Positions 21,226 through 36,089 of a DNA stretch of 64,000 nucleotides are shown one piece after another. Both the position numbers and the translations under genes were made by a program. Positions within the stretch are counted from its first letter, which is position 1, and every line of letters starts with the position of its first letter. The notes under the pieces were generated by a model that did no database searches, had not been told where the DNA came from, and saw nothing but the letters and a program-made list of their open reading frames with translations. The stretch is taken from positions 43,200 through 107,199 of the IMG/VR virus record IMGVR_UViG_2728369130_000006; one strand, 5' to 3'. This stretch comes from a virus (lineage: Duplodnaviria > Heunggongvirae > Uroviricota > Caudoviricetes).

Positions 21226-22938
21226 TTGCAGAAGAAGGTGTTATTTATTATGAATTGGATACAAAGAGAACCTACAAGAAAGCCAAATAATGATGATTCG
21301 ATCCTAGAAAGGATTGCAAAAATCAGAGGCATCGAAGATTATCAAAAATTTTTAAACCCTACAGAGGAGGAATTACACGATCCATACTCCATGAAAAATA
21401 TCCAAGATGCAAGCAACCGTATCATAAAGGCAATTGATAAGAATGAAAGAATAATTGTTTCATATGATCCAGATGCGGATGGGTTGACAGCTACAACAAT
21501 CATGTTGAGATATTTGAAAAATTACACCGATAATGTTGATTACATATATGGTGAAAGAAGTGATGGACACGGTATTACGGAGATGATTAAAATCAGTAAT
21601 CTTTCTCCGTCAAAAGACGCTGATCGGATTGAGCATAACAAATCAAATACAGATAAGATTCGCAATGCGGATTTGCTGATTTTAATTGACTCATCATCAA
21701 ATGATGTAGAGACTTGTAAATTTATAAGAGAAAAATTAAATACAGATATTATAATATTAGATCACCACGCTATTGAAAGTAAGAATCCTTATGCACTATT
21801 AGTTAATCCACAGCAGGATGAATGCGAATATCCTAACAAGTATTTGAGTGGTGCAGGAGTAGTATTTAAAACCATTCAAGTAATGGAGGACACATTAAAT
21901 CAGGTAGACGTTTGGCAATACATTGATCTGGTGGCAGTTGGTCTCTATGCGGATGTTATGAGATTAGATATCTTAGAAAACAGATATTTAATCATGCAAG
22001 GATTAAGAAATATGAAGAATACTGGTCTTGTTCGCATTTTAAAAGGTGGAAAAGTGAATACGTACAAAATGAAAGGCGATGCAATTGGATTCACCATTGC
22101 TCCAATGTTAAACGGTGCGGCGCGTATGGACAACATCAAATTAGCAATCGATATATTGTTAGAAGATGATGATAAGGTCTGTAAAAAAATTCGCCTGCAA
22201 ATGCACAAATTAAATCAGTATCGAAAAGAAAAGCAAAAAGAGATTACCGATCAATACAAAAAGAACATTGACGACACCAAAAAAGTTCTTATTGTTACCG
22301 ATGAACAATCAAGTAAAGGATTTAATGGTATTGTAGCTCAACAGCTATCAGAGGAATACAAGCGCCCTGTGATTGTTGGGCGTATACATAACGGTAAGTT
22401 ATCAGGAAGTTTTCGAAGTTATAACGGATTTAAGTTTAAGAGGTTTTTAAATCAATTTGATGGAGAGCTTGATGCTCTTGGACATGAAGGTGCAGGAGGT
22501 ATTGAGATATCTCAAGAGTTACTGCCTGATCTAGAGAAATATATTGAAAGACATATGCCTTCTCTTGAAGATGTGAAACCTACTGTATATTACGATCTAG
22601 ATATCAGCGTAGATGAGGTTGGTCAATATGTAAAAGAGTTAGACAAATTCAATCTGCTTACAGGGAATGGATTCCCTAAAGTGATTGTTCGAGTTAATGG
22701 TATATCGGTAGAAGAGCCGTCTTGTATTGGGGAGACAAAAGAGACAGTGAAAATAGGAACTTTAAATGATATGGAATTAATTAAGTTTAGAGTTAACGAA
22801 GAATACGCGTCAGAACTAAGTTATTTTGATATGATTGATGTAGTAGGTCAGCTAACAATGAACGAGTGGTTCAATTTTGCAACGAGAAAATTAGTAGCTG
22901 TACCACAGGTGATATTACACGATTATGTGAAAAGTTGA
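21226..22938 (+). CDS. RecJ-like DHH-family single-strand exonuclease
   Basis: DHH motifs DPDADG, LLILIDSSSND and IIILDHHA. Confidence 0.55.
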   Translation: MQKKVLFIMNWIQREPTRKPNNDDSILERIAKIRGIEDYQKFLNPTEEELHDPYSMKNIQDASNRIIKAIDKNERIIVSYDPDADGLTATTIMLRYLKNYTDNVDYIYGERSDGHGITEMIKISNLSPSKDADRIEHNKSNTDKIRNADLLILIDSSSNDVETCKFIREKLNTDIIILDHHAIESKNPYALLVNPQQDECEYPNKYLSGAGVVFKTIQVMEDTLNQVDVWQYIDLVAVGLYADVMRLDILENRYLIMQGLRNMKNTGLVRILKGGKVNTYKMKGDAIGFTIAPMLNGAARMDNIKLAIDILLEDDDKVCKKIRLQMHKLNQYRKEKQKEITDQYKKNIDDTKKVLIVTDEQSSKGFNGIVAQQLSEEYKRPVIVGRIHNGKLSGSFRSYNGFKFKRFLNQFDGELDALGHEGAGGIEISQELLPDLEKYIERHMPSLEDVKPTVYYDLDISVDEVGQYVKELDKFNLLTGNGFPKVIVRVNGISVEEPSCIGETKETVKIGTLNDMELIKFRVNEEYASELSYFDMIDVVGQLTMNEWFNFATRKLVAVPQVILHDYVKS

Positions 22939-22968
22939 GGTGAGAAATAATTCTCACCTTTTTCTTTT
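22938..22968 (+). terminator. rho-independent terminator
   Basis: aggtgagaa-ataa-ttctcacct followed by ttttcttttat. Confidence 0.55.
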
Positions 22969-22975: not shown

Positions 22976-23004
22976 TTTACAAAACTAACTAATAATGTTA
23001 TAAT
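22976..23004 (+). promoter_or_regulatory. promoter TTTACA-AAACTAACTAATAATGT-TATAAT
   Basis: Read directly from the sequence. Confidence 0.5.
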
Positions 23005-23034: not shown

Positions 23035-23745
23035 ATGGCAAAGGAAGCAAGGGTTACTCAGTTAAAAAACGATTTGAAACAATTGAACTACAACAATGCC
23101 TTAAGAGCTTTGCATTGGATGATCGAGACAATGAATGCAAACAACAATTATATGAGGCATGATGGAAGCCATTATTATTATCATTTAGTTGATACAGCTC
23201 AGGATTTATTGAATCATGGGATCAGGAATGAATCAATTATTACAGCTTGTATACTTCATGATTCAATAGAAGATATTCCAGAGGTGGACTATTATTTAAT
23301 TGAGGATCAATATGGGAAAGATGTTGCTCATTTGGTTTTGAGTGTCACAAAACAAGATGATATTGATTATAAAATTGAAGAAAATTTAAAAGACTATTTA
23401 AATAATATTTTAATATGCTTGGGAGCTTGCCTAATAAAAGCGGCAGACAGAAAGCATAACTTTAGCACATTGAATGAATCAAATAGGAAACATGAAATGA
23501 AACAGGTGAAGGAAACAGAGGAATTTTATATTCCTTTCTTTAAGCAAGCTCGAAAGAAATATCCAGATTATTCTGCTTATTTTCATTCTGTGAAAACTTC
23601 GATCATGCCCCATTTATTGAGAATTAAGAAAGCTTATAAGGATGAGGCAAAACTAAAAGAGAAAATTAAAGAGCTTGAACACAAACTAGATCAAGAGAGA
23701 ATGAAAAGAAAGGCGTTAGAAAAGAAAGTTAAACGAGGTGAATAA
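23035..23745 (+). CDS. SpoT/RelA-type HD-domain hydrolase (small alarmone hydrolase-like) with a C-terminal coiled coil
   Basis: H..YYYHLVD, ILHDSIEDIPE and LIKAADRKHNFSTL match the (p)ppGpp hydrolase HD signature (LLHDVVEDT ... LADRLHNMRTL). Confidence 0.55.
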   Translation: MAKEARVTQLKNDLKQLNYNNALRALHWMIETMNANNNYMRHDGSHYYYHLVDTAQDLLNHGIRNESIITACILHDSIEDIPEVDYYLIEDQYGKDVAHLVLSVTKQDDIDYKIEENLKDYLNNILICLGACLIKAADRKHNFSTLNESNRKHEMKQVKETEEFYIPFFKQARKKYPDYSAYFHSVKTSIMPHLLRIKKAYKDEAKLKEKIKELEHKLDQERMKRKALEKKVKRGE

Positions 23746-23889
23746 GATTTTAGGCTATATTAAATACATATTAGACACAGCGTGGTTCAACTTAGTTTGG
23801 TATAAATGGCACTTAGGAGCAGACATTAGAATTTTTGAGAATTGTAGTTGGAGAAATTATAGGGAAAATAAAGAAACAGGAGAGAGTCA

Positions 23890-24150
23890 ATGAAAGATGT
23901 TTTACTTGTACATGGTAGTATTATAAAGGCTTATGTACCACGAGACTATGAAAAGATTGAAACGTATATTGTAATTCGTGTAAGACAGGTGAATCCAAAT
24001 ACTATGAATCGCTGGGACTATGCTTGCGTGCCTTTGAGTGAGGGATATCGATTAGACTATAGCAAGTATAGCAAGGATTGGCAGTCAAATATTATATATT
24101 TTAACCATACAGATATCGAAGAAGTTGTTAAAAAAGCAAAACTTTATTAA
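23890..24150 (+). CDS. hypothetical protein
   Basis: RBS GGAGAGAG. Confidence 0.4.
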   Translation: MKDVLLVHGSIIKAYVPRDYEKIETYIVIRVRQVNPNTMNRWDYACVPLSEGYRLDYSKYSKDWQSNIIYFNHTDIEEVVKKAKLY

Positions 24151-24227
24151 AGATAGAAGATCATCTGAAAGTTGGATGTATAAAACCATTCTTTTATTAA
24201 CTATAAATATAGAGGAGAGCGATTATA

Positions 24228-24491
24228 ATGGATTATGGTAGATTTATATTTTTTAGCTTTAAGACAGATCACCCCATAGGTGGGATGTGTGATGTGTTGT
24301 GTCACTTTAATAACCATAATGAAGCTAAAGAACAGCTGAATAATCGAAAAAAACTTATCAACATTTTTAAGCATGACTACTTTGAACTGTTTGACTGTCA
24401 AAGAAGAGAAGTCATCATGCATGCTCAAGGCAACTTGCCAGTGCAATTAGTTGTTGATGTTGTAAAAACTGCTGAGGAGTTGAGTGAATGA
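24228..24491 (+). CDS. hypothetical protein
   Basis: RBS GAGGAGAG. Confidence 0.4.
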   Translation: MDYGRFIFFSFKTDHPIGGMCDVLCHFNNHNEAKEQLNNRKKLINIFKHDYFELFDCQRREVIMHAQGNLPVQLVVDVVKTAEELSE

Positions 24492-24531
24492 CTAAGACTA
24501 AAGATGAAAACCAACGAAAGGAATTGAGTAA

Positions 24532-25014
24532 ATGAAGTTAACTGATAAATTTGTTTTCTTCTGGGGAGCGGAAGATGTTTTTTCAAACTTTCATTACTTT
24601 CCGTTTGAACATCAAGGTATTTTGTTTAAATGGTCAGAACAAGCTGTAATGTATAGAAAGGCAAAGCTTTTTGGAGCACATACAATTGCATCGAAAATCT
24701 TAAAAGCTAATTCACCAAAAGAATGTAAAGCTTTGGGAAGAAGTAGACAAATCCCATTTAATGAAGAAATCTGGTTGAAAAACAGAGAGAGAATTTATAA
24801 AGAAGTCTTAAAGGATAAGTTCTCACATCCACATGCAAAGATCGCAATCCTATCTACAGGGAATAGGATGTTGGTTGAGGCAAGCCCTTATGATAAGATT
24901 TGGGGTATTGGATTAGCGGCAAGTCATCCTGATGCCGAAAACCCTGAAAAGTGGAAAGGCTTAAATTTATTAGGTAAAGTTCTTATGGAGGTTAGGAGTG
25001 AGTTGAGGGAGTGA
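24532..25014 (+). CDS. NADAR (YbiA/DUF1768) domain protein
   Basis: FFWG...SNF..FPF...G..F.S.EQAVMYRKAKLF....A..IL.A.SP...K.LGR matches the YbiA-like NADAR fold. Confidence 0.55.
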   Translation: MKLTDKFVFFWGAEDVFSNFHYFPFEHQGILFKWSEQAVMYRKAKLFGAHTIASKILKANSPKECKALGRSRQIPFNEEIWLKNRERIYKEVLKDKFSHPHAKIAILSTGNRMLVEASPYDKIWGIGLAASHPDAENPEKWKGLNLLGKVLMEVRSELRE

Positions 25015-25311
25015 CTTCTTATACTGCTGAATATATTGAAAATAGACTCGAAATATTATTCCCAAAATACAAGATTGAGCAAGTTGGAATGCATTTAACA
25101 GAGGTTGCTCTTACAAATATTGACTCTCATATAAGACTTTCTTTGGAGTTAAATATGCAAAGAAATATGCTGAATTAAAAGAAGATAGAATTATACATTT
25201 AAATAAAGTTCTGACATTAAGAAGTGTATTGGGAGATATTTACGAAATAAAATTGGGAATAGACGAAGAATCAAAAACTGTTTATTGGAAACCTGTTTGA
25301 AAGGGGAGTAT

Positions 25312-25761
25312 ATGAGCGAAATTATTATCTATGCTGATGGCGGTTGTAGGAATAATGGTAAAGAGAATAATATTGGTGGTTGGGGAGCGGTGCTTCAATA
25401 TAACGGCCATGTAAAAGAGCTTTACGCAGGAGAAAGAAATACTACCAATAATATTCAAGAATTAAAAGGAGCTATCAATGCACTAGAAGCACTTAAAACA
25501 ACAAATATTCCTGTTCGTTTACACATGGATTCTGCTTATGTGGTAAATGGAATAAATCAATGGGTTAAAGGTTGGAAGAAAAAAGGCTGGAAGAAAGGCG
25601 ATGGAAAAAATCCTGAAAACCTTGAGCTTTGGAAACATCTTGATAATCTTGTTTCAAAACAGGAAGATATTCAAGTATTAAAAGTAAAAGGACATGCAGG
25701 TGTTGATCTAAATGAAAGAGCAGATGAGTTGGCGAACTTAGCTATGGACGAGGTGGAGTAA
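25312..25761 (+). CDS. ribonuclease HI
   Basis: IYADGGCRNNG, ELKGAINALE, HMDSAYV and the ...ADELAN catalytic motifs. Confidence 0.65.
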   Translation: MSEIIIYADGGCRNNGKENNIGGWGAVLQYNGHVKELYAGERNTTNNIQELKGAINALEALKTTNIPVRLHMDSAYVVNGINQWVKGWKKKGWKKGDGKNPENLELWKHLDNLVSKQEDIQVLKVKGHAGVDLNERADELANLAMDEVE

Positions 25762-26216
25762 TGATTAAAATTATTCAAGGCGATTTGTTAGAAGCAAAAG
25801 AAAATATTATTGCACATCAGGTAAATTGTAAAGGTGTCATGGGAAGTGGCGTAGCAAAGCAAATTAAGCAAAAATATAATAAAGCGTTTAATGATTATAA
25901 AAATTTAATTACTAGACGAGCCGTGGAAGAACTTTTAGGGAGCGTTCAATATGTGCCCATTGATGACAAGAAATACATTGCCAATTTATTTGGACAATAC
26001 AAATATGGATATGATGGAATCCAATATACAAATATAGAAGCATTATCAGATTGCTTATTTGATTTGAGAAAAGAAGCAGAAAAACATGAGCTATCGGTTG
26101 CTATGCCTTATATGATCGGTTGCGACCGTGGCGGAGCGGACTGGAGAGAAGTTGAAGGACTAATCATTGATGCATTTGAAGGATATGAAGTAACTTTATA
26201 TAAATTGAAAAGGTGA
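25761..26216 (+). CDS. macro-domain protein (ADP-ribose binding/processing)
   Basis: IIQGDLLEAKENIIAHQVNCKGVMGSGVAKQI follows the macro-domain N-terminal pattern. Confidence 0.5.
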   Translation: MIKIIQGDLLEAKENIIAHQVNCKGVMGSGVAKQIKQKYNKAFNDYKNLITRRAVEELLGSVQYVPIDDKKYIANLFGQYKYGYDGIQYTNIEALSDCLFDLRKEAEKHELSVAMPYMIGCDRGGADWREVEGLIIDAFEGYEVTLYKLKR

Positions 26217-26225
26217 AGATGATTT

Positions 26226-26897
26226 ATGGGGAAAGAAACTGTTTATCGAGGTATGAAGCCTTTTTTGCAACTTGCAAATATTAAATTAGACCTTGAAAAA
26301 GCAAAGAAAGATTTTATAAACCTTCTTCCTCCAGAATATCAGGAGGAGTTTAAAAACAAATCATATTTGGCTGGTGGAGCTATCTACAGTTTATACAATA
26401 ATCAAATACCAAAGGATTATGATTTCTTTTTAACAGATGAATCACTCGTAAAAGAATTACGGAGATTCTTTGATAATGGAACACTTAAATATAAAAATGG
26501 TGTCAAAATCGGAAAGTATAAGGGTGAGACTCTTGTATACACTGACAATGCAATATCAATTGGAATGTACCAGATAATTACTAAATGGGTGGGCAAACCA
26601 GAGGATGTAATTGGAGAATTTGACTTTAAACATAATATGTATTACTACATAAATGGAGAGATTGAGACGTTAGTTGGCTGGGAGTATTTAAATGACAATA
26701 AGCTTAAATACAATGAAAAGAGAGCTAGAGATATTTGCGGAACAATTATTAGAATAAAGAAATTTGTTGAGCGCGGATTTACCGTTACTAATCATGAAGT
26801 AGCGAAGATGCTTTTAAAATTACATGAAGTTGGCTTTAATGAAGGAGAGTTAGAAATTTTACATATAAACGATGAAAGAAACGATTTTGGCAGTTGA
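26226..26897 (+). CDS. putative Pol-beta-superfamily nucleotidyltransferase (CCA-enzyme-like head motif)
   Basis: LAGGAIYSLYNNQIPKDYDFFLT versus GGAVRD.LLG..PKDIDIAT. Confidence 0.3.
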   Translation: MGKETVYRGMKPFLQLANIKLDLEKAKKDFINLLPPEYQEEFKNKSYLAGGAIYSLYNNQIPKDYDFFLTDESLVKELRRFFDNGTLKYKNGVKIGKYKGETLVYTDNAISIGMYQIITKWVGKPEDVIGEFDFKHNMYYYINGEIETLVGWEYLNDNKLKYNEKRARDICGTIIRIKKFVERGFTVTNHEVAKMLLKLHEVGFNEGELEILHINDERNDFGS

Positions 26898-26922
26898 CAA
26901 AACTAATTAATAATGAGAAAAT
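26894..26922 (+). promoter_or_regulatory. promoter TTGACA-AAACTAATTAATAATGA-GAAAAT
   Basis: Read directly from the sequence. Confidence 0.45.
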
Positions 26923-26982
26923 AATAAATTATAATACATAATTAATTGTTAGTTCGATCTTGCTTAATAAGGAGAGGTTTTG

Positions 26983-27204
26983 ATGCATTATATATATGAA
27001 TCAAAGTGCAACAAAAAGGCAAAAGAAAGAGCTAATTTTTACTTTACAGAGGTTTATAACAATCTGTACGAAGTAACAAAGCATAAATTCGGGATCACTG
27101 GTCACAGATTAAATTCAAAAGATGTTATGCAAACCTTACAAAATGAAGACAGAGTAGTTATCGAAAGACTGGATGGATCAATTTATGCAAACCATCTTTT
27201 TTAA
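26983..27204 (+). CDS. hypothetical small protein
   Basis: RBS AAGGAGAGG. Confidence 0.4.
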   Translation: MHYIYESKCNKKAKERANFYFTEVYNNLYEVTKHKFGITGHRLNSKDVMQTLQNEDRVVIERLDGSIYANHLF

Positions 27205-27213
27205 AACATTACA

Positions 27214-27229
27214 AAACTAATTAATAATG
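27214..27229 (+). promoter_or_regulatory. conserved element without a -10 hexamer, 21 nt before the ATG
   Basis: acaaaactaattaataatgctagaggag followed by the ATG at 27250. Confidence 0.4.
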
Positions 27230-27249
27230 CTAGAGGAGATATATAAATA

Positions 27250-27486
27250 ATGGAGATTAAAATTTTAAAGTATGAAAAAAGTCATTCAGGCTACTTTTTA
27301 AAACACAAAGCACTGGTAGAAGCATCTGGTGAGATTGATGAAAATGATTTGATTTTCAATGCTAGCATTGAAGTTGGTTATCATCCTAAAGAGTATGGGC
27401 TATATGGTTTTAAAGTGAAAAAATTCTCTATCAAGGATCAGACTAGGTTTATCATTGCTTGGGAAACAGATCGGAGGAAGATTTGA
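27250..27486 (+). CDS. hypothetical small protein
   Basis: RBS AGAGGAG. Confidence 0.4.
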   Translation: MEIKILKYEKSHSGYFLKHKALVEASGEIDENDLIFNASIEVGYHPKEYGLYGFKVKKFSIKDQTRFIIAWETDRRKI

Positions 27487-27998
27487 TGAGAGAAGTACAA
27501 TGCTTCAAAATTAAGCGCGACACAAAATATGATGAAGCTGTTAAGAAGCATTTTTCATTAGTGGATAAATGGAAAGGGATGTATAGCAAAGTAGGAAGTT
27601 TGCTTGATGAGAACATTACAAGACTAGGATTCAATCCAAAAGAACCACATATTGATTTTTCTGAGTTAAAAAAAGAAGAGAATAAGAGAATCTTTAAGCA
27701 AGATGGAACACTTAAAAGAAGTTTTAAAAGATCAAAACAGTTATTAGAAGACTATAAAAATCTAATTCAGGAAGAAGGATTGTCAGAATATGTGAACCTT
27801 TCAATAATTAATTTTTCTTACGGCATGTTGAGAAGAAATGGAGAAAATTTGGAGAGCTTTGTCACAAGTGACCATGACTTATATTACAAAGCAGATTTTG
27901 ATTTAAAAGCACGTTCTAGTGGATTAGTTGAACCAATTACAGAAATCGAATATCAAGAAAAGTATCTAGAAGAACTCAAAAAGCTAAGAGAGGAATAG
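27486..27998 (+). CDS. hypothetical protein
   Basis: RBS GGAGGAAG before the ATG at 27486. Confidence 0.4.
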   Translation: MREVQCFKIKRDTKYDEAVKKHFSLVDKWKGMYSKVGSLLDENITRLGFNPKEPHIDFSELKKEENKRIFKQDGTLKRSFKRSKQLLEDYKNLIQEEGLSEYVNLSIINFSYGMLRRNGENLESFVTSDHDLYYKADFDLKARSSGLVEPITEIEYQEKYLEELKKLREE

Positions 27999-28348
27999 TA
28001 TATGGAGTTAAAGATTAGCGTAAATAAGATTCGCTTTTTAGATTCAAAGCTTACATCTGAAATGTTAAATAATAACGATGCAGTTATAGGAACAATTGAT
28101 GGAAGAACAGTCTTACTAACCGTAGTAGACCTAAAAGACATTATAAAACAAGTAGAAAAGAAGGAGGATCAATTATGATTTGGACTGTTTTAGCTTGTGG
28201 TATTTACAATATTTTTCTCAGTTTAATTTTAAAGACGAGAGATTTTGGTAGTTCGGTATTATTTAAAGTTATCCCATTCTTTTTGGGATTAGGATGTTTA
28301 ATTTATTTTCTAAAAGTAACAGGATTTGCTTTGTAGAGGCAGTGAATT

Positions 28349-28696
28349 ATGAGCGTTTATATGATGTTTTTAATTTTATTATTTGCACATTTGTTGGCTG
28401 ATTACCCATTGCAAGGAGACTTTCTTGCGAATATGAAAGGTAAAAATCTAATTATCTTAGCAACACATGCTGGAATTTGGACGGGTGTCATCTGTATCGC
28501 ATTATGGCTTATGAATATTCTTGTTACACCAATAGATATTGTATGGCTATTTGTAGTTCATACTATTGCAGATTATATGAAGGCAAAACCTCTAGGGTTT
28601 TATAAAAAGTTAAATCCGCTAGGTACAGGATTAGCGATCGATCAGGGTATACATATTTTACAGATCATCATCTTATTGACATATAAAACAATTTGA
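28349..28696 (+). CDS. DUF3307-like integral membrane protein
   Basis: HLLADYPLQ motif and about three transmembrane helices. Confidence 0.4.
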   Translation: MSVYMMFLILLFAHLLADYPLQGDFLANMKGKNLIILATHAGIWTGVICIALWLMNILVTPIDIVWLFVVHTIADYMKAKPLGFYKKLNPLGTGLAIDQGIHILQIIILLTYKTI

Positions 28697-28708
28697 AGGG
28701 AGTAAGGA

Positions 28709-29008
28709 ATGGCCAAATATCGTAAAAAACCTATTGTTGTTGAAGCGAAGTTGTTCGAGATGGGGATGGAAGATGGATACGCGTGTTATCCGTTGTTTTC
28801 CAATAAATTTCTTGGTTTCTATCCGAAAAACGGTTATCTGCCTAGAGCGGGAAGAAAGCCGGCGATGAAGACGCTTGAAGGATGGTATGAAGTAGAAGTT
28901 GGAAAGCACTATATTGTTACAGGTGTTAAAGGTGAGCGATATCCAGTTGAAAAAGAGATTTTTGAAGAGACATATGAATTAATTGAAGAGAGCGGCGTTC
29001 ATAAGTGA
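28709..29008 (+). CDS. hypothetical protein
   Basis: RBS GGGAGTAAGGA. Confidence 0.4.
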   Translation: MAKYRKKPIVVEAKLFEMGMEDGYACYPLFSNKFLGFYPKNGYLPRAGRKPAMKTLEGWYEVEVGKHYIVTGVKGERYPVEKEIFEETYELIEESGVHK

Positions 29009-29074
29009 ATATAAAAAGCAAAAGAGTCGAAATTACAAGGTTTAATAAAAGATAGTTTTTATTAGGAGGACAAA

Positions 29075-29479
29075 ATGGATAAACCTAAAATTGAACATGT
29101 GACATTTTGTAGAAATGAAGGGAAATTTAATTGGTTAGACCCAAAAGAGATAAATGCACAATATGTATTTAATTTTCCTCATCTAACAGTAGAACAAATA
29201 TCGGAAATGGGCTTAAAAACAAGTTTTCTGGTTGATATAGAAAAAGACTATGGCTTCTCGCCAGAATCATATTCACCTCTAGATGTTGCATACGAAATTA
29301 AAGAAATTTACGACAGTTATTGGATTCATACAGGACAAAAAGATATTCAAAAACTTGTCGAGTATTTAGAGTCGATTAATGAAGAACAAGAAGAGTTAAA
29401 GCATAAATACGAGATTGAAAATGCTAAATATCAAATATATTTTTGGGAAAATGAACTTAAACGATTAGAAACACTGTAG
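29075..29479 (+). CDS. hypothetical protein
   Basis: RBS AGGAGGA. Confidence 0.4.
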   Translation: MDKPKIEHVTFCRNEGKFNWLDPKEINAQYVFNFPHLTVEQISEMGLKTSFLVDIEKDYGFSPESYSPLDVAYEIKEIYDSYWIHTGQKDIQKLVEYLESINEEQEELKHKYEIENAKYQIYFWENELKRLETL

Positions 29480-29727
29480 GAAATTTCGTTTTATGTGTGA
29501 GGAGTGAACTAAGTGGATAAAAAATTACAGTGGTGTTTCCAAAAATTAGATGAAAAGTTAAGTGAATTAGGGTAATCAGATTCATCATTTGAATATGCAC
29601 CTCATATTAGAGAGCCTTTTGATAAAGTTATTGAAAGCTTAAATGAGATTCGTACATATTTAGGCGGATATTAAATAAAAGTTAACCGATATTTCAATAA
29701 TGAAGATGAATAAAGGAGGACAAAACA

Positions 29728-30060
29728 ATGGATGGAACATTTTTAGGGAAAATCGTACAAGCTGAATTTGGAACTGTTAAAGAAAGAGATTTTCTTCTCG
29801 GTCTTCAACTTTCATTTAAGTTTAATAGAGGAGATCATGTTAGCGATGGTGGATACCATATTGTAAATGTTAGTGAAAATTGCTTTTGGGAAAGCGAAAT
29901 CCAAAAATATGAAATGTATGAAAGAGTATTGAAAGACTTAAAGAAAGTTCTTGACGATGCAAAAGTTAATTATGTTTCTGAATTGATTGGAAAGCCAATT
30001 GAAATTGAAATAGAAGGCGATCGGTTTAAATCTTTTAGAATACTAACAGAAGTTTTATAG
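29728..30060 (+). CDS. hypothetical protein
   Basis: RBS AAGGAGGA. Confidence 0.4.
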   Translation: MDGTFLGKIVQAEFGTVKERDFLLGLQLSFKFNRGDHVSDGGYHIVNVSENCFWESEIQKYEMYERVLKDLKKVLDDAKVNYVSELIGKPIEIEIEGDRFKSFRILTEVL

Positions 30061-30264
30061 GTGAATAGATATGTTGAAATACTTAAAACGTTTTATATGC
30101 AAATACAGAGATCATGATTGGATTACATATACAGTTAGTACAGGATTTTGGGGTAATGATATTGAGCAGGCTGGATATTGTAGGCGGTGTGGATTTGATA
30201 CACATGGAGAATATGAGAGTTAAAACTGAGTGATTTGAAATATTTTAAGGGAGGAGGATATTGA

Positions 30265-30459
30265 ATGAGCTATTATGCACAATTCTTTTTCAAGTGTAAA
30301 GACTGTGGTTTTATGCTGTCTCTTATGGGACAAGCAGATCGACAATCAGAGGTAGAAATTTGTCCATGTTGTGGTGGAGATTTGGATTATGCGCCAAAGA
30401 AAGATAGAGAAAATTATATTCGTGATTTGAAGGTAGAGATTGCCGAAATTGATATGTGA
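30265..30459 (+). CDS. small zinc-ribbon protein
   Basis: CKDCG...CPCCG. RBS GGGAGGAGG. Confidence 0.45.
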   Translation: MSYYAQFFFKCKDCGFMLSLMGQADRQSEVEICPCCGGDLDYAPKKDRENYIRDLKVEIAEIDM

Positions 30460-30471
30460 GGAGGGTAACTC

Positions 30472-30654
30472 TTGAGAGATGACATAACCATTATTTACAT
30501 GACAATACTAACCGCATCCCCATTTCTAGGGGCTTTTATTGGTCAATTTTTTTCTAAAAAACAAAAAGGAATGGCAATGATGTTAGGAGCAATAATTTCT
30601 ACTTCTGCGGCCTCAGCTTTTACTCCGATACTATTAACAATGACAATCCAATAA
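30472..30654 (+). CDS. small membrane protein
   Basis: Two hydrophobic helices. Confidence 0.35.
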   Translation: MRDDITIIYMTILTASPFLGAFIGQFFSKKQKGMAMMLGAIISTSAASAFTPILLTMTIQ

Positions 30655-30854
30655 GGAGGCTGTTAATGAAAACAAATAAATATAGTTGTATCCTTTTTAT
30701 GTTTGTTATCCTTGGATTTGGTTTGACAATCATAACAACAAATTCTGTCCCCTCTTATATTTATTGGGAAGCAACATACTTTATCTTTTAATTGAAATAG
30801 CTAATATGATACATAAACTTACAAAAGAAAAGGTTAATCTAGGTGAGGATTGTA

Positions 30855-31046
30855 ATGAGACATAAAGATATTAGCTTTGCTTTGGCAGTTTTAGAAAAAG
30901 AAGCAGAGGAAAGAATTGATGCATTATTCAATAAGGAATGGGAAAAACCATATGAAGATGGAGCTGTAACAGATATCAGAATGATTAAATCAGCAATAAA
31001 GAAAATTAAAGATGTATTTAAAGATGAGATAGTGGAAGGAGAGTAA
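30855..31046 (+). CDS. hypothetical small protein
   Basis: RBS GGTGAGGA. Confidence 0.35.
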   Translation: MRHKDISFALAVLEKEAEERIDALFNKEWEKPYEDGAVTDIRMIKSAIKKIKDVFKDEIVEGE

Positions 31047-31048
31047 TT

Positions 31049-31237
31049 TTGAAAATAATTTGTGTAGATAATTTTAATAAAGAAACCGTAGACGACGTGT
31101 TGGTTTGTGAAAACATTAATAAATACCACGGGGAGAAAATTGTTGATTTTTTAAATGAGAAATTTTCAGGATTGGACAGCCTTAAATGTTACCGATTAGT
31201 TGATGATGATTACGAATTATACAAATTTGAAATTTAA
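31049..31237 (+). CDS. hypothetical small protein
   Basis: TTG start after GGAGAG. Confidence 0.3.
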   Translation: MKIICVDNFNKETVDDVLVCENINKYHGEKIVDFLNEKFSGLDSLKCYRLVDDDYELYKFEI

Positions 31238-31436
31238 CTAAAGGAATGAATGAATTTGAAAGCCATTAAATCTCCTTTCAAAATGCTTTTTATTCTTATG
31301 ACTATTAGACAAAAAAATGTTTATATAAACTTTAAACAATTGTCCTACCCTGAAAAGCATTTTTATAAATGGCAATGGAATATTTTAGACAGAATTTATA
31401 ATGACTAAAAGATTAATTGAATGAGGGTGAAATTAA

Positions 31437-31637
31437 ATGTTTTATGAAGGAATGACTTGGTTCGATTTGGTTAGAAAGTATTTTCCTGATGCAGACGATA
31501 AAGAGTGCGAGTTTATTCTTTGGGAAACAACCGAATTTCCATTAGTGCCACCTGAAAAAATTGAGGAAAGATTGAAGGAAAATCAACTTATGTGGCTGGC
31601 GGAAAAGAGAAGTAACAAAAGAATTAGTGGAGAGTGA
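31437..31637 (+). CDS. hypothetical small protein
   Basis: RBS GAGGGTGA. Confidence 0.35.
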   Translation: MFYEGMTWFDLVRKYFPDADDKECEFILWETTEFPLVPPEKIEERLKENQLMWLAEKRSNKRISGE

Positions 31638-31784
31638 AATATGCAGAAGATCACTGTCGAGATACCTCTTGAATGGAAGGGATTAATTGAAGATCGGTAT
31701 GGGTTGATTGAGGATTGGCTGTTTAATGTATGCTATGAAAAGCAAAAACAAATGAAAAAAGCTAAATCATAAAGGAGTGTTTTA

Positions 31785-31991
31785 ATGAAGTTTATATATT
31801 TTAATGATACAGGAAGAGAAATAAGTATACACCCTGCAACGAAAATTCATGGAACTGTATGTGACATGGAGGCAATCAGGCCATATGAAAAGAGAGTTTT
31901 TAATCTTCCAGAGGGCACATATCCTTTGGTTAAAATGTGGGACTATGGTGATAGAGGATTGCAAATTTTAGTTTCACCTAACGTTTGTTAA
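31785..31991 (+). CDS. hypothetical small protein
   Basis: RBS AAGGAGTG. Confidence 0.35.
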   Translation: MKFIYFNDTGREISIHPATKIHGTVCDMEAIRPYEKRVFNLPEGTYPLVKMWDYGDRGLQILVSPNVC

Positions 31992-32038
31992 GTATGAATT
32001 AAGAAGAACATAATCAATATACAAGGGAGAGTTTTCGA

Positions 32039-32224
32039 ATGATTAAGATGCAAAAAGGCTATTTATTGAAAGGCAAAAACAGAGTAGTTACAGATAAATT
32101 AATTATTGCAGATGTAAGAGATGAAGACCTTGAGGAAGTCCAAATTGCTATTCCTGTAAAGCAGATTAAAAATTGGGCAGAAGAAATTGAATTAATGGGA
32201 CTAGATGAAGAAAAGGAATTTTGA
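32039..32224 (+). CDS. hypothetical small protein
   Basis: RBS AGGGAGAG. Confidence 0.35.
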   Translation: MIKMQKGYLLKGKNRVVTDKLIIADVRDEDLEEVQIAIPVKQIKNWAEEIELMGLDEEKEF

Positions 32225-32242
32225 TAATTATGAGGTGAAAAT

Positions 32243-32479
32243 ATGAATGAGTGGAAGATAATGTACCAATGCGATAAATGTGGACATATAAGTGGATGGA
32301 AGCTGGATGAATGTTGTGGCGGTTGCGACACATTGAAAAATCCCATCAAAGATAAATATGGATTTTCAGATGGGTATGATGGATGGGATAAAGTAGTGGT
32401 TAAATGGTCATTCAAAGGGAGTATATTTAATCCTTTTAGCTGGTGTGATTGGGGATGGATTGTAAAATATGATAAATAA
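32243..32479 (+). CDS. small Cys-rich (zinc-binding) protein
   Basis: CDKCG...CCGGC. RBS GAGGTGA. Confidence 0.4.
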   Translation: MNEWKIMYQCDKCGHISGWKLDECCGGCDTLKNPIKDKYGFSDGYDGWDKVVVKWSFKGSIFNPFSWCDWGWIVKYDK

Positions 32480-32505
32480 AATATCATTTTTATCAAGGTG
32501 AGATT

Positions 32506-32709
32506 ATGAACAAAGAAAAATTGAAAGAGTTTTTAAAAGAATTAAATAAGTTGGAAGTTAAGTATGGCATCCATATTAGTGCCGATTATCGAGAAGAGAT
32601 CGATTACAACTGGCATGAAGAACCTTATGTTGGTGGAATTGATGCATATTTAGTCTTTAGTGATGAAGAAGGCAACTCAATGACAGAGAATGACCTTAAT
32701 ATATATTGA
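32506..32709 (+). CDS. hypothetical small protein
   Basis: RBS AGGTGAGA. Confidence 0.35.
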   Translation: MNKEKLKEFLKELNKLEVKYGIHISADYREEIDYNWHEEPYVGGIDAYLVFSDEEGNSMTENDLNIY

Positions 32710-32785
32710 TAATCTAGCCGACATTGAAAATTACTTCATAGACATAAACATCTTAAAATATGTCATAAACGGAAGGATGAAAAGA

Positions 32786-32977
32786 ATGGATTTAGTTGTC
32801 TTTAAAAGAGATGTTTTCTTTGCTGATAATCATAGTGATATTGTTTTTAAAAAAGGTAAAGAATATGAAATTTTGAGCGAAGATAAAGAATTTATATATG
32901 TTAATTCAAAGCCAAAGACAAGTGAATGTTCTAAAATCCCTAAAAAAGAAGAAGGATTTATTTTTGAATACAAGTAG
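32786..32977 (+). CDS. hypothetical small protein
   Basis: RBS GGAAGGA before the ATG at 32786. Confidence 0.3.
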   Translation: MDLVVFKRDVFFADNHSDIVFKKGKEYEILSEDKEFIYVNSKPKTSECSKIPKKEEGFIFEYK

Positions 32978-33026
32978 TACATAGGGTTATACATGAATTT
33001 TTTATCATGGAAGGAGAAATATTATT

Positions 33027-33242
33027 GTGAAAGATTATAAAGATACTAAGTTACTCAGCGAAGATTGTATGGTTAATCGTGCTTTTTACGGAGTCGGAAT
33101 AACTGGAGAAAATAAAGTTCCTCAAAAAAGATTGTCCAATATTACAATAACACATTCTATTCATGGAAAAATTAAATTAGATAGAGAAGAGGCAATAAAT
33201 TTAAAATTGTTTTTAGAAAATTCTTTAGAACAAGAATTTTAA
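33027..33242 (+). CDS. hypothetical small protein
   Basis: GTG start after GGAAGGAGA. Confidence 0.3.
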   Translation: MKDYKDTKLLSEDCMVNRAFYGVGITGENKVPQKRLSNITITHSIHGKIKLDREEAINLKLFLENSLEQEF

Positions 33243-33647
33243 AATCTTACTTTTATTAAGGGGTGATAAACATGGATGGTAGAGAATTTTTGATTATTGG
33301 CAGACTTCAAGCATGGTTGGAAGATAAAATCAAAGAATCTAATGATGACAAGGAGCAATATGTTTACGAACAAGTATTATGGAAAGTTGATGAACTTAGA
33401 AACTGAATAAAAATCTATCCTATAAAGGAGTTTTGAGATGAAACTACAAGATGTTTTAGAAAAATTTAAACAGCAAGGTAATTATGATGTATCACTTTAT
33501 TATGGAGAAAGTGTTGGTTGTGATGATTTAAGTATTCTGCCTCAGCATGAAGAGTATTCAGAAAATGGTGTTTATGTTTGGGTACAGAAAGCGCAATGAA
33601 GTCTTATTTAGAAGGAATCGGAAAAGAAATTTATAAAGGAGAATTTA

Positions 33648-34001
33648 ATGAGAATGCGAATTTCCAAGAGTAATAAGGATAAATTGATGAGTGAGCTGAA
33701 TACATTTATCGATGATCTTATAGATCAGAAAGATCACCTGTCTGAACAGTTAAAGAATTTTAATGCAGAAGAAAAAGTGGCGAAAGCCTTAAAAGAAATC
33801 GAGGAAATTAAAAGAGCAAGTCTCTACGTTATGAATGATCAAGAAGATAAGGATGCAAAAGAATTTATAGAGAAACATTGGAATAGTTGCAAAGGAAATG
33901 TTCAATATATTCTTGAAGGAACTGGCCTTGGTACAGTCATCAGTATTAAATGTAAAGAATGTAATGAAGTAAAAAATATAACAGATGATTCAAATTGGTA
34001 A
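33648..34001 (+). CDS. hypothetical protein with a C-terminal CxxC pair
   Basis: RBS AAGGAGAA. CKGN...CKECNE. Confidence 0.4.
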   Translation: MRMRISKSNKDKLMSELNTFIDDLIDQKDHLSEQLKNFNAEEKVAKALKEIEEIKRASLYVMNDQEDKDAKEFIEKHWNSCKGNVQYILEGTGLGTVISIKCKECNEVKNITDDSNW

Positions 34002-34015
34002 AAGGATGGATACAT

Positions 34016-34276
34016 ATGAGTGAACTATTCCATTATGGAATGTACACCTTTTGGTATAACAATCTTGAAGAGTTTTATGCTTGGTTCAATCAGGAGATGA
34101 AGAGGTTAAGACCAAAAGGAACATGTGCACAAGATATGGCTACGACAACAGGACATACAGCTTTCTGCAAGACATACCCTACTTTTGATGATGCATTTAG
34201 AGCTTATATAAGAAGTGTTGAAGAGAATAGGCATAAAGAGATGTTGACTGATATACAAGGAAAAGAATTGTTGTGA
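34016..34276 (+). CDS. hypothetical protein
   Basis: RBS AAAGGATGG before the ATG at 34016. Confidence 0.35.
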   Translation: MSELFHYGMYTFWYNNLEEFYAWFNQEMKRLRPKGTCAQDMATTTGHTAFCKTYPTFDDAFRAYIRSVEENRHKEMLTDIQGKELL

Positions 34277-34301
34277 TTTCATTTTAATAAGAGGTGGCAA
34301 G

Positions 34302-34484
34302 ATGGAAGGATTGCTGGATTTCTTTAAAGAAAATTGCGTAGCATTACAAATAACAATAGACATAAATCGTAAACCAACGGTACACGCCGTTCCAAAAGGA
34401 CGTAGTTTCATGGATATGGAATCTACAGATGGTGAAACAGTTGTAGAAGCTTTGAAAAATATGAAGAATAGGTTGTTTGGATAA
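34302..34484 (+). CDS. hypothetical small protein
   Basis: RBS AGAGGTGG. Confidence 0.35.
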   Translation: MEGLLDFFKENCVALQITIDINRKPTVHAVPKGRSFMDMESTDGETVVEALKNMKNRLFG

Positions 34485-34511
34485 AACATCAATAGATAAT
34501 AAGGAGATAAC

Positions 34512-34739
34512 ATGATTAAAAAATATGTAGTTGCTTATTACAGTAATATCTATACGAATGTATTTTTAAACGGCGGATGGGAAAATCAATACATAGGGCA
34601 AGGCATTGTACATGAATCTAAAAAATTCAACCATCCTCCTAAAACATTGAGTTCGTGTTTAAATCTAGTTAGTCATTATGCTCCAAAAGACAAGGGATAT
34701 GACTATGCAAAAATTGAAGAGAGATATTATAAAAGTTAA
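34512..34739 (+). CDS. hypothetical small protein
   Basis: RBS AAGGAGA. Confidence 0.35.
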   Translation: MIKKYVVAYYSNIYTNVFLNGGWENQYIGQGIVHESKKFNHPPKTLSSCLNLVSHYAPKDKGYDYAKIEERYYKS

Positions 34740-34758
34740 ATTGGTTTAGGAGAATTAT

Positions 34759-35100
34759 ATGGATGAACTTGTTCAATATTATATTGTAAACAAAGAACTT
34801 AATATGTCAAAAGGAAAAATGTCTGCACAAGTTGCACATGGCGCAACTATTTCCGCTGTGATGCTGAGTGAGCAAGAGACATTTCAGAAATGGTATGAGA
34901 AGGATCAAAAAAAGATCATACTTCAAGGGAAAGAAAAAGACTTACATAAAATTTTATCGAATGTCACTTACAGCTTTATGGTTACTGATAATGGCTTAAC
35001 AGAGATACCAAAAGGATCAAAGACTGTTGTTGTCTTACCGCCTATGAAAAAATCAGAGGCGCAAAGATATGTGAAGAGATTACAGTTATTCAAAGGTTAG
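34759..35100 (+). CDS. PTH2-family peptidyl-tRNA hydrolase
   Basis: YIVNKELNMSKGKMSAQVAHGA, KIILQGKEKDL, DNGLTEIPKGSKTVVVLPP match PTH2 (VVRTDL.MGKGKIAAQ.SHA ... DAG.T.I..GS.TVL.IGP). Confidence 0.55.
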   Translation: MDELVQYYIVNKELNMSKGKMSAQVAHGATISAVMLSEQETFQKWYEKDQKKIILQGKEKDLHKILSNVTYSFMVTDNGLTEIPKGSKTVVVLPPMKKSEAQRYVKRLQLFKG

Positions 35101-35111
35101 GAGAGAAATAG

Positions 35112-35447
35112 ATGTCGAAATTTGAATTTGACGTGGAAAGAAAAGGTTTAATTAGCGATGGATATCATACTTTTGATGAATTATATTATCATCGAATGAT
35201 CTTATTTTCTGTCATTTGTAATACATACAAAGATAAAGCATGGAAGTCTTGGAAACATGATGATGGAACAATGTTTGATGACTACTTCATTGTTGGGATT
35301 GAGACTACTCACGGCCACTATACTTATCACTATCACAAAGATTATTGGGAATTGTTTGATGTTAAAAAATTAGAATTTGCTCCAAAATGGGATGGGCATA
35401 AATCAGAAGATATTGATAGATTGTTCAGCTTAATTGGCAATAGCTAA
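35112..35447 (+). CDS. hypothetical protein
   Basis: RBS GGAGAGAAA. Confidence 0.4.
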   Translation: MSKFEFDVERKGLISDGYHTFDELYYHRMILFSVICNTYKDKAWKSWKHDDGTMFDDYFIVGIETTHGHYTYHYHKDYWELFDVKKLEFAPKWDGHKSEDIDRLFSLIGNS

Positions 35448-35580
35448 AAGGGGAATTATAAATGTATTTTGAATTTGGTGAACTTCTTATCATGCTCATT
35501 CTGCAAGGATTTACATGTTATTGTATTGGATATAGGGTTGGAAAGGAGTAAATTCAGTATTTTTATAAAGGAGTTATATT

Positions 35581-35865
35581 ATGTTTTCATTGGAGAATAT
35601 TAAGAGTCGAATAGCTAAAGATGATGGTGTAGGAAACTACGCCAACGTCTCTTGTGAGGAGATAGATTGGATTGTAGAGCTGGCATCGAAAGCCAAGGAG
35701 TATGAAGAGATTATATCTTTTATTGCGAATATTGATGTTATCTTCATGAATCCAGATGGCACAGAAAGAGAATGGGATGATAAAGAAGCTTTGAAGAAAA
35801 TTGACGAATTAGCTACACCTGTGTGGGAAGAAATATGTAGGAAAAGTAGGAGAAGTGATGAATGA
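35581..35865 (+). CDS. hypothetical acidic protein
   Basis: RBS AAGGAG. Confidence 0.4.
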   Translation: MFSLENIKSRIAKDDGVGNYANVSCEEIDWIVELASKAKEYEEIISFIANIDVIFMNPDGTEREWDDKEALKKIDELATPVWEEICRKSRRSDE

Positions 35866-36089
35866 AATTTCCATTTTATACAGGAGTCGATAAAGATTGA
35901 ATATTGAAGGATTTATTGAATTGGCAGAAAAAGAAATAAAACAACTAAAAGAGGATATGCACTATTCTAGGCACGATGTTTCTATAAGGATTCTTTTACA
36001 AGCAATAGAAGATAGACAAAAGACAATTGAAGAAGTTAAAGAGAAATATCTTAATAGATAAAATGCGAGTTTTATAAAGGAGGATAACA

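Follow-up and report, generated by a model that had tools for sequence, protein, structure and literature searches.

A candidate modular counter-defence island encoding NADAR, macrodomain and Gad2-like proteins in an SPbeta-like prophage of Bacillus licheniformis

The stand-alone phage NADAR protein AdfN-Bas60 neutralises DarT1 without a partner and rescues three unrelated phages from DarTG1, and it is inactive on DarT2 damage (Johannesman et al. 2025, PMC11825919). A phage macrodomain, AdfM (Tk.4) of T4, is needed on DarTG2 hosts, as established by a transposon screen (HIDEN-SEQ) and a clean knockout (preprint 10.1101/2025.11.20.689424). The bacterial macrodomain SCO6735, which is inactive as Q85A or Q85E, is more efficient than DarG at cleaving thymidine-linked ADP-ribose (ADPr) from DNA and shields cells against DarT (PMC9411070). 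Phage small alarmone hydrolases (SAHs) neutralise every toxSAS toxin tested (Jimmy et al. 2020, PMC7229694), and Gad2, encoded by SPbetaL6/L7, has been validated as an anti-Gabija factor (Yirmiya et al., bioRxiv 10.1101/2023.05.01.538930) of unknown mechanism (PMC12904381). Here we describe a locus that carries relatives of all of these proteins. It lies in a 64,000-nucleotide stretch of a caudoviricete genome (IMG/VR record IMGVR_UViG_2728369130_000006, positions 43,200 to 107,199), which is called the window below and from whose first letter all coordinates are counted. Taken in aggregate, the data suggest that the genes between 23035 and 26897 probably form a single early-type unit of an SPbeta-like Bacillus licheniformis prophage and act as a modular counter-defence island whose enzymes, each exchangeable independently of the others, would undo nucleic-acid and nucleotide modifications made by host immunity.

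A sequence-only reading of this DNA had proposed that NADAR, RNase H, macrodomain and nucleotidyltransferase (NTase) genes form one functional unit directed at DarTG-like or ADPr-signalling immunity. The four open reading frames (ORFs) and their domains are real, all on the + strand at the coordinates below, with matches to PF08719 (E=1.1e-42), PF00075 (3.5e-34) and PF01661 (3.6e-9) and an intact NTase triad in the fourth. The proposal that NADAR and macrodomain counter DarT enzymes also stands, as a prediction from homology to AdfN-Bas60 and T4 AdfM with catalytic residues retained. Two features had been overlooked: the remnant of a broken gene behind the NADAR gene (55 amino acids, 25011-25178) and the kinship of the NTase to Gad2.

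The NADAR gene (24532..25014, + strand) encodes a 160-amino-acid, AdfN-like candidate ADP-ribosyl-guanine glycohydrolase. The protein covers the whole of PF08719 (profile positions 1-163/163), at 146.5 bits against a cut-off of 35.1, and matches TIGR02464 at 6e-44. Its closest solved relative is the Phytophthora NADAR:ADPr structure 8BAU (PnNADAR; 9e-19), which ranks ahead of E. coli YbiA. In this alignment, E36, K43, K66, R70 and E116 coincide with PnNADAR E43, K50, K75, R79 and the last-strand Glu; the roles of the PnNADAR residues in ADPr binding and catalysis have been described (PMC11543638). The window protein is also 38% identical over its full length (E=5e-29) to bas62_0106 of the BASEL phage Bas62, a protein of the AdfN-Bas60 type, within a family present in 820 phage records, Bas62 among them. 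Like AdfN-Bas60 of the phi92-like phages Bas60-62, it is a stand-alone phage NADAR of similar size with the same catalytic E/K pair and last-strand Glu. It differs in coming from a Bacillota host and a temperate SPbeta-like phage, and in its apparent transcriptional linkage to a macrodomain gene.

NADAR proteins have been divided into classes by active-site residue (PMC11125620). Because the window protein is Glu-type (LVEAS) and has no fold extension, it is neither of the T4 gp30.3 His-type nor of the DarT1-linked Asp-type. Assignment as DarG1, the BC4488-type antitoxin associated with DarT1, was likewise rejected: Glu replaces Asp, the N-terminal extension of the YbiA fold is missing, and the score against the DarG1 model NF053876 is 48.8 bits against a cut-off of 240. 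Scans of ~98 window ORFs found no ADP-ribosyltransferase (ART) domain, and no darT1 adjoins the NADAR gene. The most likely role is that of an AdfN-like eraser of guanine-linked ADPr on phage DNA, that is, a putative anti-DarT1 function.

The macrodomain gene (25761..26216, + strand) encodes 151 amino acids of the ALC1/TARG1 class, Gln-type SCO6735/Bt_1257 subclass, and is an AdfM-like candidate thymidine-ADPr DNA hydrolase. Its match to PF01661 exceeds the gathering score, and it matches the PADLOC DarG model at 6e-24. When a profile of the phage family is compared with the PDB, the leading structures are Bt_1257 (2.5e-17), M. tuberculosis DarG (5e-16), SCO6735 (4e-15) and T. aquaticus DarG (1e-13). 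The invariant motif of the family is N-L-F-G-Q, and its Gln, Q79, occupies the column of DarG K80, TARG1 K84 and SCO6735 Q85; it aligns both with the first Lys of the DarG 'TKK' and with the Gln of the 'GQ' shared by SCO6735 and Bt_1257. In addition, H19 and N22 are invariant and match H24 and N27 of the SCO6735 H-x-x-N motif. The window protein thus has in common with SCO6735 and Bt_1257 the AN-x-x-GQ motif and the His/Asn/Gln active-site residues (PMC9411070). With T4 Tk.4 it shares 32% identity (E=8e-13) and a Gln at the catalytic position (NLFGQ in the window protein, NLYTQ in Tk.4).

This arrangement separates the window macrodomain from several better-known relatives. A DarG-type lysine enzyme was rejected, as K81 is not conserved in the family and Q79 fills the catalytic column. 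A DarG2 antitoxin was rejected as well: the catalytic Lys and the C-terminal DarT-binding domain are both absent and no DarT lies nearby. The score against the DarG model NF048014 is 73.7 bits against a cut-off of 250, covering positions 1-147 of 338. Like AdfM of T4 (Tk.4) and PhiKZ gp104 (PMC13309987), the protein is a stand-alone phage macrodomain of about 150 amino acids in the ALC1/TARG1/DarG class. PhiKZ AdfM, by contrast, is a Lys-type enzyme (N23/K78) that the phage nucleus imports. The Q79 column and the likeness to Tk.4 mean that the window protein is best described as a predicted Gln-type, AdfM-like enzyme. The recognition that the phage family, T4 AdfM included, is by its aligned active site Gln-type like SCO6735 is new.

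The 223-amino-acid protein encoded at 26226..26897 (+ strand) corresponds to a minimal nucleotidyltransferase with a head-neck fold of the CCA-adding/poly(A)-polymerase kind. That it is an NTase, as the sequence-only reading had it, holds: it matches phrog_1614 ('nucleotidyltransferase') at 1e-6, and G50, G51, D64, D66, D133, H136 and R176, which include the GG...DxD...D triad of Pol-beta nucleotidyltransferases, are invariant in its family. The part of the claim that tied it to ADPr chemistry is not supported. In BLASTP, SPbetaL7 Gad2 is matched at 1e-9 and about 22% identity, with the AGGAI-SL-NN...D-D and FDF motifs aligned; in hhalign, the match reaches 98% probability (E=2.6e-13) over Gad2 residues 6-218. 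Together, the BLASTP and profile comparisons identify the protein as equivalent to the N-terminal catalytic half of the 400-amino-acid Gad2. The family, which has 4,320 cluster representatives at E<=1e-3, carries the precomputed Pfam tag PF26128 'Gad2', and the proteins share a homologous NTase domain with aligned GG...DxD...FDF, the same tag and an origin in SPbeta-group phages; they differ in length (400 against 223 amino acids) and in genomic locus. No Pfam match, PF01743 included, was obtained for the window protein even at E<=10. Authentic Gad2 gives none either, so the Pfam copy searched has no PF26128 model.

The AlphaFold (AF2) model of this protein has a mean confidence (pLDDT) of 90.6. 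In Foldseek, it retrieves 3aqm, 1vfg, 4x4w and 1miv at probability 1.0, with query-normalised template-modelling (TM) scores of 0.40-0.50. The model matches E. coli poly(A) polymerase and the class II CCA-adding enzymes in their head and neck regions and has no counterpart of their body and tail. Those enzymes are 340-420 amino acids long, and the TM scores normalised to them are ~0.23-0.33. Viral structural neighbours are mostly uncharacterised. The T4 NTase NrdC.11, considered as a relative, shows no similarity. The protein is therefore better read as a Gad2-like member of the anti-Gabija family, judging by the BLASTP and hhalign matches, than as an enzyme of ADPr chemistry.

The first gene of the unit (23035..23745, + strand) encodes a SpoT/Rel-type HD hydrolase of 236 amino acids resembling SAHs. 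The sequence-only reading had placed a SpoT-like hydrolase at this point, and profile searches agree: HD_4 (PF13328) is matched at 2.4e-11 (44 bits against a cut-off of 27.2) and the Rel/SpoT hydrolase domains, represented by RelSeq 1vj7, at 1e-10, with the HDxxED and DRxHN motifs intact and aligned. The class is the one that includes the toxSAS-neutralising phage proteins PbcSpo and PaSpo (PMC7229694). Like these stand-alone SAHs, the window protein is a phage-encoded single-domain Rel/SpoT-type HD hydrolase; unlike them, it bears a C-terminal coiled-coil-like tail at about residues 200-236. Its gene adjoins the RecJ-like gene in all related phages compared.

Upstream of the HD gene, the RecJ-like (YorK-type) gene ends at a strong intrinsic terminator-like hairpin (22937..22960, + strand) with a 10-pair stem containing 4 GC pairs, followed by the T-run TTTCTTTTAT. 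The unit is headed by a promoter at 22976..23004 (+ strand), a perfect copy of a 22-bp phage motif, TTKACAAAACTAAYTAATAATG, with an 11/12 match and an extended -10. The next perfect copy, at 26894..26922 on the same strand, overlaps the stop codon of the Gad2-like gene and starts the following unit, and there is none between. This makes the 3.9 kb from the HD gene to the 223-amino-acid gene one promoter-to-promoter unit. No convincing terminator was found between the promoter at 22976 and the end of the last gene: a + strand scan from the HD gene onwards returned a single terminator-like site, a weak 7-pair stem at 24557-24575 inside the NADAR coding sequence. Stop/start overlaps join genes of the unit. 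The TAATG at 25761 noted in the sequence-only reading is indeed the stop of the RNase H gene and the start of the macrodomain gene, and the macrodomain stop lies 9 nt ahead of the start of the Gad2-like gene. Since the promoter motif brackets the SpoT-like to the Gad2-like gene, co-transcription of 23035-26897 is likely.

The window contains 18 copies of the motif, every one of them on the + strand, against 0.01 expected by chance (positions 781, 6092, 11863, 13778, 13844, 15025, 17592, 20939, 21067, 22976, 26894, 27208, 40318, 46822, 46915, 51777, 52976 and 59178). Its layout is TTTACA, a conserved spacer, TG and then TATAAT, and its appearance is that of a phage-specific early/middle promoter whose conserved spacer resembles an operator. 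It may correspond to the SPbeta repeated element.

Co-transcription does not make the unit a fixed one. The genes downstream of the RecJ-like and HD genes were compared across related genomes, and close and distant relatives carry differing sub-combinations, so the claim that NADAR, RNase H, macrodomain and NTase are one functional unit did not hold up. The window and the loci L007 and L008 have the NADAR, RNase H, macrodomain and Gad2-like genes together with a broken 99-amino-acid gene. The B. licheniformis prophages L004-L006 have an intact 99-amino-acid gene and the NADAR, RNase H and Gad2-like genes, and they lack the macrodomain gene. In L010 and L011, NADAR is present and RNase H runs directly into the Gad2-like gene, again with no macrodomain. 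PJN02 and FADO carry NADAR, a small ORF, macrodomain and Gad2-like genes with no RNase H, and 2S-4 and PK-3 show the same spacing. In vB_BcoS-136, RNase H and macrodomain genes occur without NADAR or Gad2-like genes, and a terminator follows the macrodomain gene. The Kirov/Tsamsa group has the macrodomain and neither RNase H nor the Gad2-like gene; NADAR lies ~7 kb off in Tsamsa, and in Kirov the macrodomain stands alone near RecJ-HD. A fixed four-gene cassette is rejected by these combinations (NADAR with RNase H and Gad2-like; NADAR with macrodomain and Gad2-like; RNase H with macrodomain; macrodomain alone). The slot behind RecJ-HD is, as the differing gene content indicates, a hotspot in which accessory genes assort independently.

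The exchange can be followed closely at the macrodomain gene. L004-L006 follow the window at 99.5% identity as far as the RNase H stop, then lack exactly the 462-bp macrodomain gene, and resume at 92.4% identity. Short repeats containing a ribosome-binding site (RBS) flank this indel, GAGGTGGAGTAATG / AAGGTGAAGATGATTTATG, of the form GAGGTG(G/A)AG...ATG (window 25745-25765 and 26205-26230; L004 7985-8005). The drop from 99.5% to 92.4% at the junction marks, on alignment, a recombination breakpoint.

Across more distant viruses, the only part of the gene order that recurs is the adjacency of NADAR and macrodomain. The loci examined were the best 80 per search and are partly redundant, so the counts that follow are indicative and carry no statistics. 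Among NADAR-anchored IMG/VR loci, the macrodomain family lies within 10 kb in 15/79 and within 700 bp in 9/79. Either gene may come first, the two are co-directional in every case, and the NADAR proteins of the lineages concerned have only 38-43% identity to that of the window. RNase H is not a general partner: it is found within 10 kb in 9/79 NADAR loci, where the two nearest cases are close relatives, and in 3/79 macrodomain loci, and the hits are mostly close relatives. The Gad2-like gene is not one either, with 1/79 NADAR loci within 10 kb, and in 22 more distant Gad2-like viral loci (L012-L033) the gene has no NADAR, RNase H or adjacent macrodomain neighbour. In several divergent contigs (L049 3119-4072; L185 9508-10513; L145, L165, L167 and L168 ~9944-10938), the macrodomain ORF and the NADAR ORF, whichever comes first, are directly adjacent or share a few bases. 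Some of these pairs may be fused or coupled in translation, and as a group they are promising candidates for a minimal dual anti-DarT module.

Such linkage had been seen before. NADAR-macro neighbourhoods and fusions in DNA viruses were noted in 2022 (Iyer, Burroughs, Anantharaman, Aravind, PMC9503650), and the loci surveyed resemble the window in having co-directional, adjacent NADAR and macrodomain genes in early regions of large phage genomes. That survey favoured soluble ADPr derivatives as targets and did not describe the Bacillus arrangement or the RNase H and Gad2-like neighbours. The sequence-only reading had called the four-gene arrangement undescribed. The Bacillus arrangement is indeed absent from PMC9503650; NADAR/macrodomain counter-defence and linkage are already published (PMC11825919, PMC13309987, 10.1101/2025.11.20.689424, PMC9503650). 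In T4, adfM and adfN are at separate loci; in the window, the two genes are in one predicted operon, ~750 bp apart.

Two further genes lie between NADAR and macrodomain. The first (25011..25310, + strand) is a frameshifted remnant of the 99-amino-acid gene, in which only the 55-amino-acid ORF is readable. A 10-bp deletion (GAGAAAATAT-type segment) breaks it in the window, and the ORF is intact in the sibling prophages L004 and L010. The second (25312..25761, + strand, with an ATG start and a possible TTG start at 25285) encodes a 149-amino-acid RNase HI of the E. coli type with a basic protrusion. It matches PF00075 at 118 bits against a cut-off of 25.8 and E. coli RNase HI (1rbt) at 1.5e-33, with all D-E-D-H-D catalytic positions aligned. 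It scores 158.4 bits on the NCBIfam equivalog NF001236, marginally under the cut-off of 160, and is 80% identical to rnhA of phage vB_BcoS-136. This enzyme is probably a general one for RNA:DNA hybrids and primer removal that rides in the hotspot near replication genes and does not serve as a dedicated partner to the rest of the unit. Between the SpoT-like and NADAR genes, three small ORFs (23738..24491, + strand) of 51, 86 and 87 amino acids are kept in close relatives only; the second is weakly DUF4176-like and the third weakly Phage_T4_Y07C-like.

The genomic setting is that of a temperate phage. The window has a GC content of ~32%, with nearly every gene on the + strand, and is phage-like DNA. 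The NADAR, macrodomain and 223-amino-acid proteins have identical copies in B. licheniformis assemblies, on contigs of 0.7-4.3 Mb, annotated as 'NADAR family protein', 'macro domain-containing protein' and 'hypothetical protein', respectively, and the L008 locus is 99.85% identical to the window across 11 kb. The flanking genes encode YorH, a DnaB-like helicase, a primase, the RecJ-like YorK-type exonuclease, a type II topoisomerase, a split ribonucleotide reductase and a serine recombinase. This gene content places the cassette in an integrated SPbeta-like prophage of B. licheniformis, directly behind the replication module. A megablast of the region against phage genomes gave only ~75% identity, over the NADAR gene, so that collection holds no close sequenced phage relative. 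Placement within the dedicated anti-Gabija locus of SPbeta was considered and rejected, there being no flanking homology or synteny to the SPbetaL7 Gad2 region.

Other parts of the prophage were recorded alongside. GyrB-like and GyrA/ParC-like genes at 42696-46838 make up a complete type II topoisomerase. The large subunit of ribonucleotide reductase is divided between two ORFs (47547-48707 and 49559-50797, Pfam barrel positions 1-212 and 213-523), with a 165-amino-acid ORF at 48971-49468 between the halves, and HNH_3, I-TevI DNA-binding and LAGLIDADG matches occur within the window. Introns and inteins with a homing endonuclease are known for SPbeta-type phages, and the split suggests one or the other here. 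Downstream of the cassette, at 26980-38045, lie ~35 small + strand ORFs, mostly of 50-130 amino acids and nearly all without a family match, with copies of the promoter motif among them. Such 'dark matter' is typical of early regions, and further anti-defence genes might be hidden there. ORFs upstream (window 1-38000) include a match to GmrSD_N, the N-terminal domain of a type IV restriction endonuclease (2.2e-9), and an MrpR-like recombinase, which could be prophage-borne defence or recombination functions. The prophage is also rich in RNA/tRNA-repair and NAD-linked functions: it holds a Thg1-like 3'-5' polymerase (6468-7193), PTH2 and WDGH (~34759-35447), an Rnl1-type ligase (55943-57118) and, beside it, a kinase-HD protein (57112-58140), an ATP-dependent DNA ligase (59217-60521) and YpsA-SLOG (61480-62025), with RlaP and Rv2179c-like matches somewhere in 39-53 kb.

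If the region is a counter-defence island, the unit would supply all five enzymes during phage development. NADAR would strip ADPr from guanine in phage DNA after attack of the DarT1 type, as AdfN proteins do. The macrodomain would strip ADPr from thymine after attack of the DarT2 type, as T4 AdfM and SCO6735 do; its mechanism would be the Gln-dependent, water-mediated one of SCO6735 instead of that of the DarG lysine. The SpoT-like hydrolase would break down the products of toxSAS enzymes. The Gad2-like protein would counter Gabija, or a system related to it, in the manner of the catalytic half of Gad2, possibly by transferring a nucleotidyl group to the 3' end of a nucleic acid or to a small molecule. 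The genus does contain suitable targets: in B. cereus-group genomes, DarTG is found in 11.2% and Gabija in 13.9%. The Psychrobacillus temperate phage Perkons encodes homologs of the Gad2-like protein (45%) and RNase HI (53%) at separate loci (MT325768.1 63408-63998 and 34839-35281), and its host is reported to carry darTG and two Gabija systems (PMC13245101). This lends the counter-defence interpretation anecdotal support.

Several observations weigh against a counter-defence island of this kind. In place of SCO6735 K34 the macrodomain has S29, a residue that does not vary across the phage family. SCO6735 is a bacterial protein encoded by a DNA-damage-induced chromosomal gene, and its K34 is important for DNA binding, whereas the phage protein is shorter and has Ser there. 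The NADAR protein passes the NCBI equivalog-domain model for a riboflavin-intermediate N-glycosidase (150 bits against a cut-off of 73.7), and for this reason a metabolic role is possible. NADARs share activity in vitro and show strong specificity in vivo: away from their own context, T4 NADAR and YbiA gave no rescue from DarT1 toxicity (PMC11125620). The Gad2-like protein has no counterpart of the C-terminal half of Gad2; its identity to Gad2 is only ~22%, and its gene lies away from the SPbetaL7 Gad2 locus. Finally, because these are prophage genes, they could work on behalf of the lysogen and not in lytic growth.

Other explanations of the locus were weighed against the same evidence. The NADAR and macrodomain proteins could act mainly on small ADPr derivatives (cyclic ADP-ribose (cADPR) isomers of the TIR/Thoeris type, ADPr-1''-phosphate or products of NAD breakdown), erasing immune signals or toxic metabolites, as part of the sequence-only reading and the general proposal of Iyer et al. 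2022 would have it. The YpsA-SLOG gene fits this idea, as do the several records that label the macrodomain family an 'Appr-1''-p processing' enzyme or 'phosphatase'. Nevertheless, the nearest characterised relatives (AdfN-Bas60, T4 AdfM, SCO6735 and DarG) act on DNA bases, all NADARs tested to date hydrolyse guanine-ADPr (PMC11125620), and phosphatase macrodomains of the MacroD/Poa1p type score far lower (6lfu ~1e-5, with a single sequence and partial coverage). No evidence was found for a Thoeris or cADPR target. We know of no NADAR or macrodomain that degrades Thoeris signals, and action on soluble ADPr is an unlikely explanation. RNA/tRNA repair and replication housekeeping, in which RNase HI would act on primers, the NTase on tRNA 3' ends, the SpoT-like protein on tRNA 3'-pyrophosphate and macrodomain and NADAR on ADPr by-products of RNA repair, would suit the position directly behind the helicase, primase and RecJ-like genes and the class II CCA-adding/poly(A)-polymerase head fold of the NTase. 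The prophage also encodes Thg1-like, PTH2, Rnl1-type RNA ligase, kinase-HD (Pnkp-like), RlaP and Rv2179c-like exoribonuclease proteins, and Burroughs, Aravind and Iyer tie NADAR and Macro to KptA-dependent RNA repair. However, scans of window ORFs, ~20 of them one by one and a further 78 in bulk (E<=1e-4), detected no KptA/Tpt1 or other ART, leaving no evident source of Appr>p; the RNA-repair genes are 17-30 kb off in other promoter units; the NTase lacks the body and tail that hold tRNA (223 against ~390 amino acids, target-normalised TM ~0.28); and its named relative, Gad2, is an anti-Gabija factor. We regard a housekeeping role as quite improbable. The same scans bear on the idea of self-directed erasers, for which the phage itself would have to encode an ART or KptA: neither turned up among the ~98 ORFs, a screen that ORFs of <60 amino acids and divergent ARTs could escape.

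Service to the lysogen, as protection of the orphan-antitoxin type from ADP-ribosylating or pyrophosphorylating toxins of competitors or other mobile elements, would agree with integration of the window in B. licheniformis chromosomes. SCO6735 has been proposed to guard its host against exogenous DarT-like toxins (PMC9411070), and YbiA-type NADARs are antitoxins to the ART toxin YarT (PMC11125620). The same genes, however, occupy the same place in Bacillus siphophage genomes that are virion-derived or strictly lytic (PJN02, FADO, PK-3 and vB_BcoS-136), which argues for a function during infection, and the unit sits among replication genes behind the repeated phage promoter, pointing to expression in phage development; a role confined to the lysogen is therefore very unlikely. 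The genes might instead be functionally unconnected, gathered by chance in a recombination hotspot, with NADAR a riboflavin-intermediate N-glycosidase. All sub-combinations of the genes occur in relatives, the RBS-type repeats that bound the macrodomain gene fit illegitimate recombination, and the TIGR02464 score of the NADAR protein is over the cut-off. On the other side, NADAR-macro adjacency recurs in many divergent lineages, far more often than adjacency to RNase H or the Gad2-like gene, and four of the five enzymes come from families in which counter-defence has been demonstrated, so that chance assembly seems a poor explanation. At the opposite extreme, the unit would be a coordinated 'nucleic-acid damage eraser' operon, in which the Gad2-like NTase modifies nucleic-acid 3' ends beside the SAH, RNase HI and two base-specific de-ADP-ribosylases. 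In such an operon, the NTase would tail or cap phage DNA ends against end-sensing nucleases like Gabija, or rebuild tRNA 3' ends after attack by toxSAS or nucleases. We consider this degree of coordination unlikely, and return to the island of exchangeable enzymes as the probable account.

All components belong to described families, three of which have phage members validated in counter-defence, and both AdfN and AdfM have already been described from T4. Current concepts are unchanged; what is added is family members and a tidy genetic system. The novelty is modest. Besides the Gln-type assignment of the phage macrodomains and the short Gad2-like protein, it consists of a Bacillus/SPbeta-like case in which the genes for both predicted anti-DarT erasers appear to be transcribed together with those for an SAH and a Gad2-like enzyme, and of a natural macro-plus/macro-minus pair of near-identical prophages. 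Such presence/absence variants, of which the 462-bp macrodomain cassette is one, are ready isogenic comparisons for matching genes to host defences. If the island interpretation is true, this would be the first Gram-positive (Bacillus, SPbeta-like) phage with a guanine-specific NADAR and a thymine-specific macrodomain side by side on one transcript, and the Gln-type mechanism of SCO6735 would extend to phage AdfM proteins. Were the coordinated eraser operon to prove true, it would be a natural dual anti-DarT1/anti-DarT2 module, and the mechanism of the Gad2 family would come to light in a short, tractable protein. The 223-amino-acid enzyme offers a compact, confidently modelled member of a large uncharacterised family and could help to explain how Gad2-type NTases defeat Gabija.

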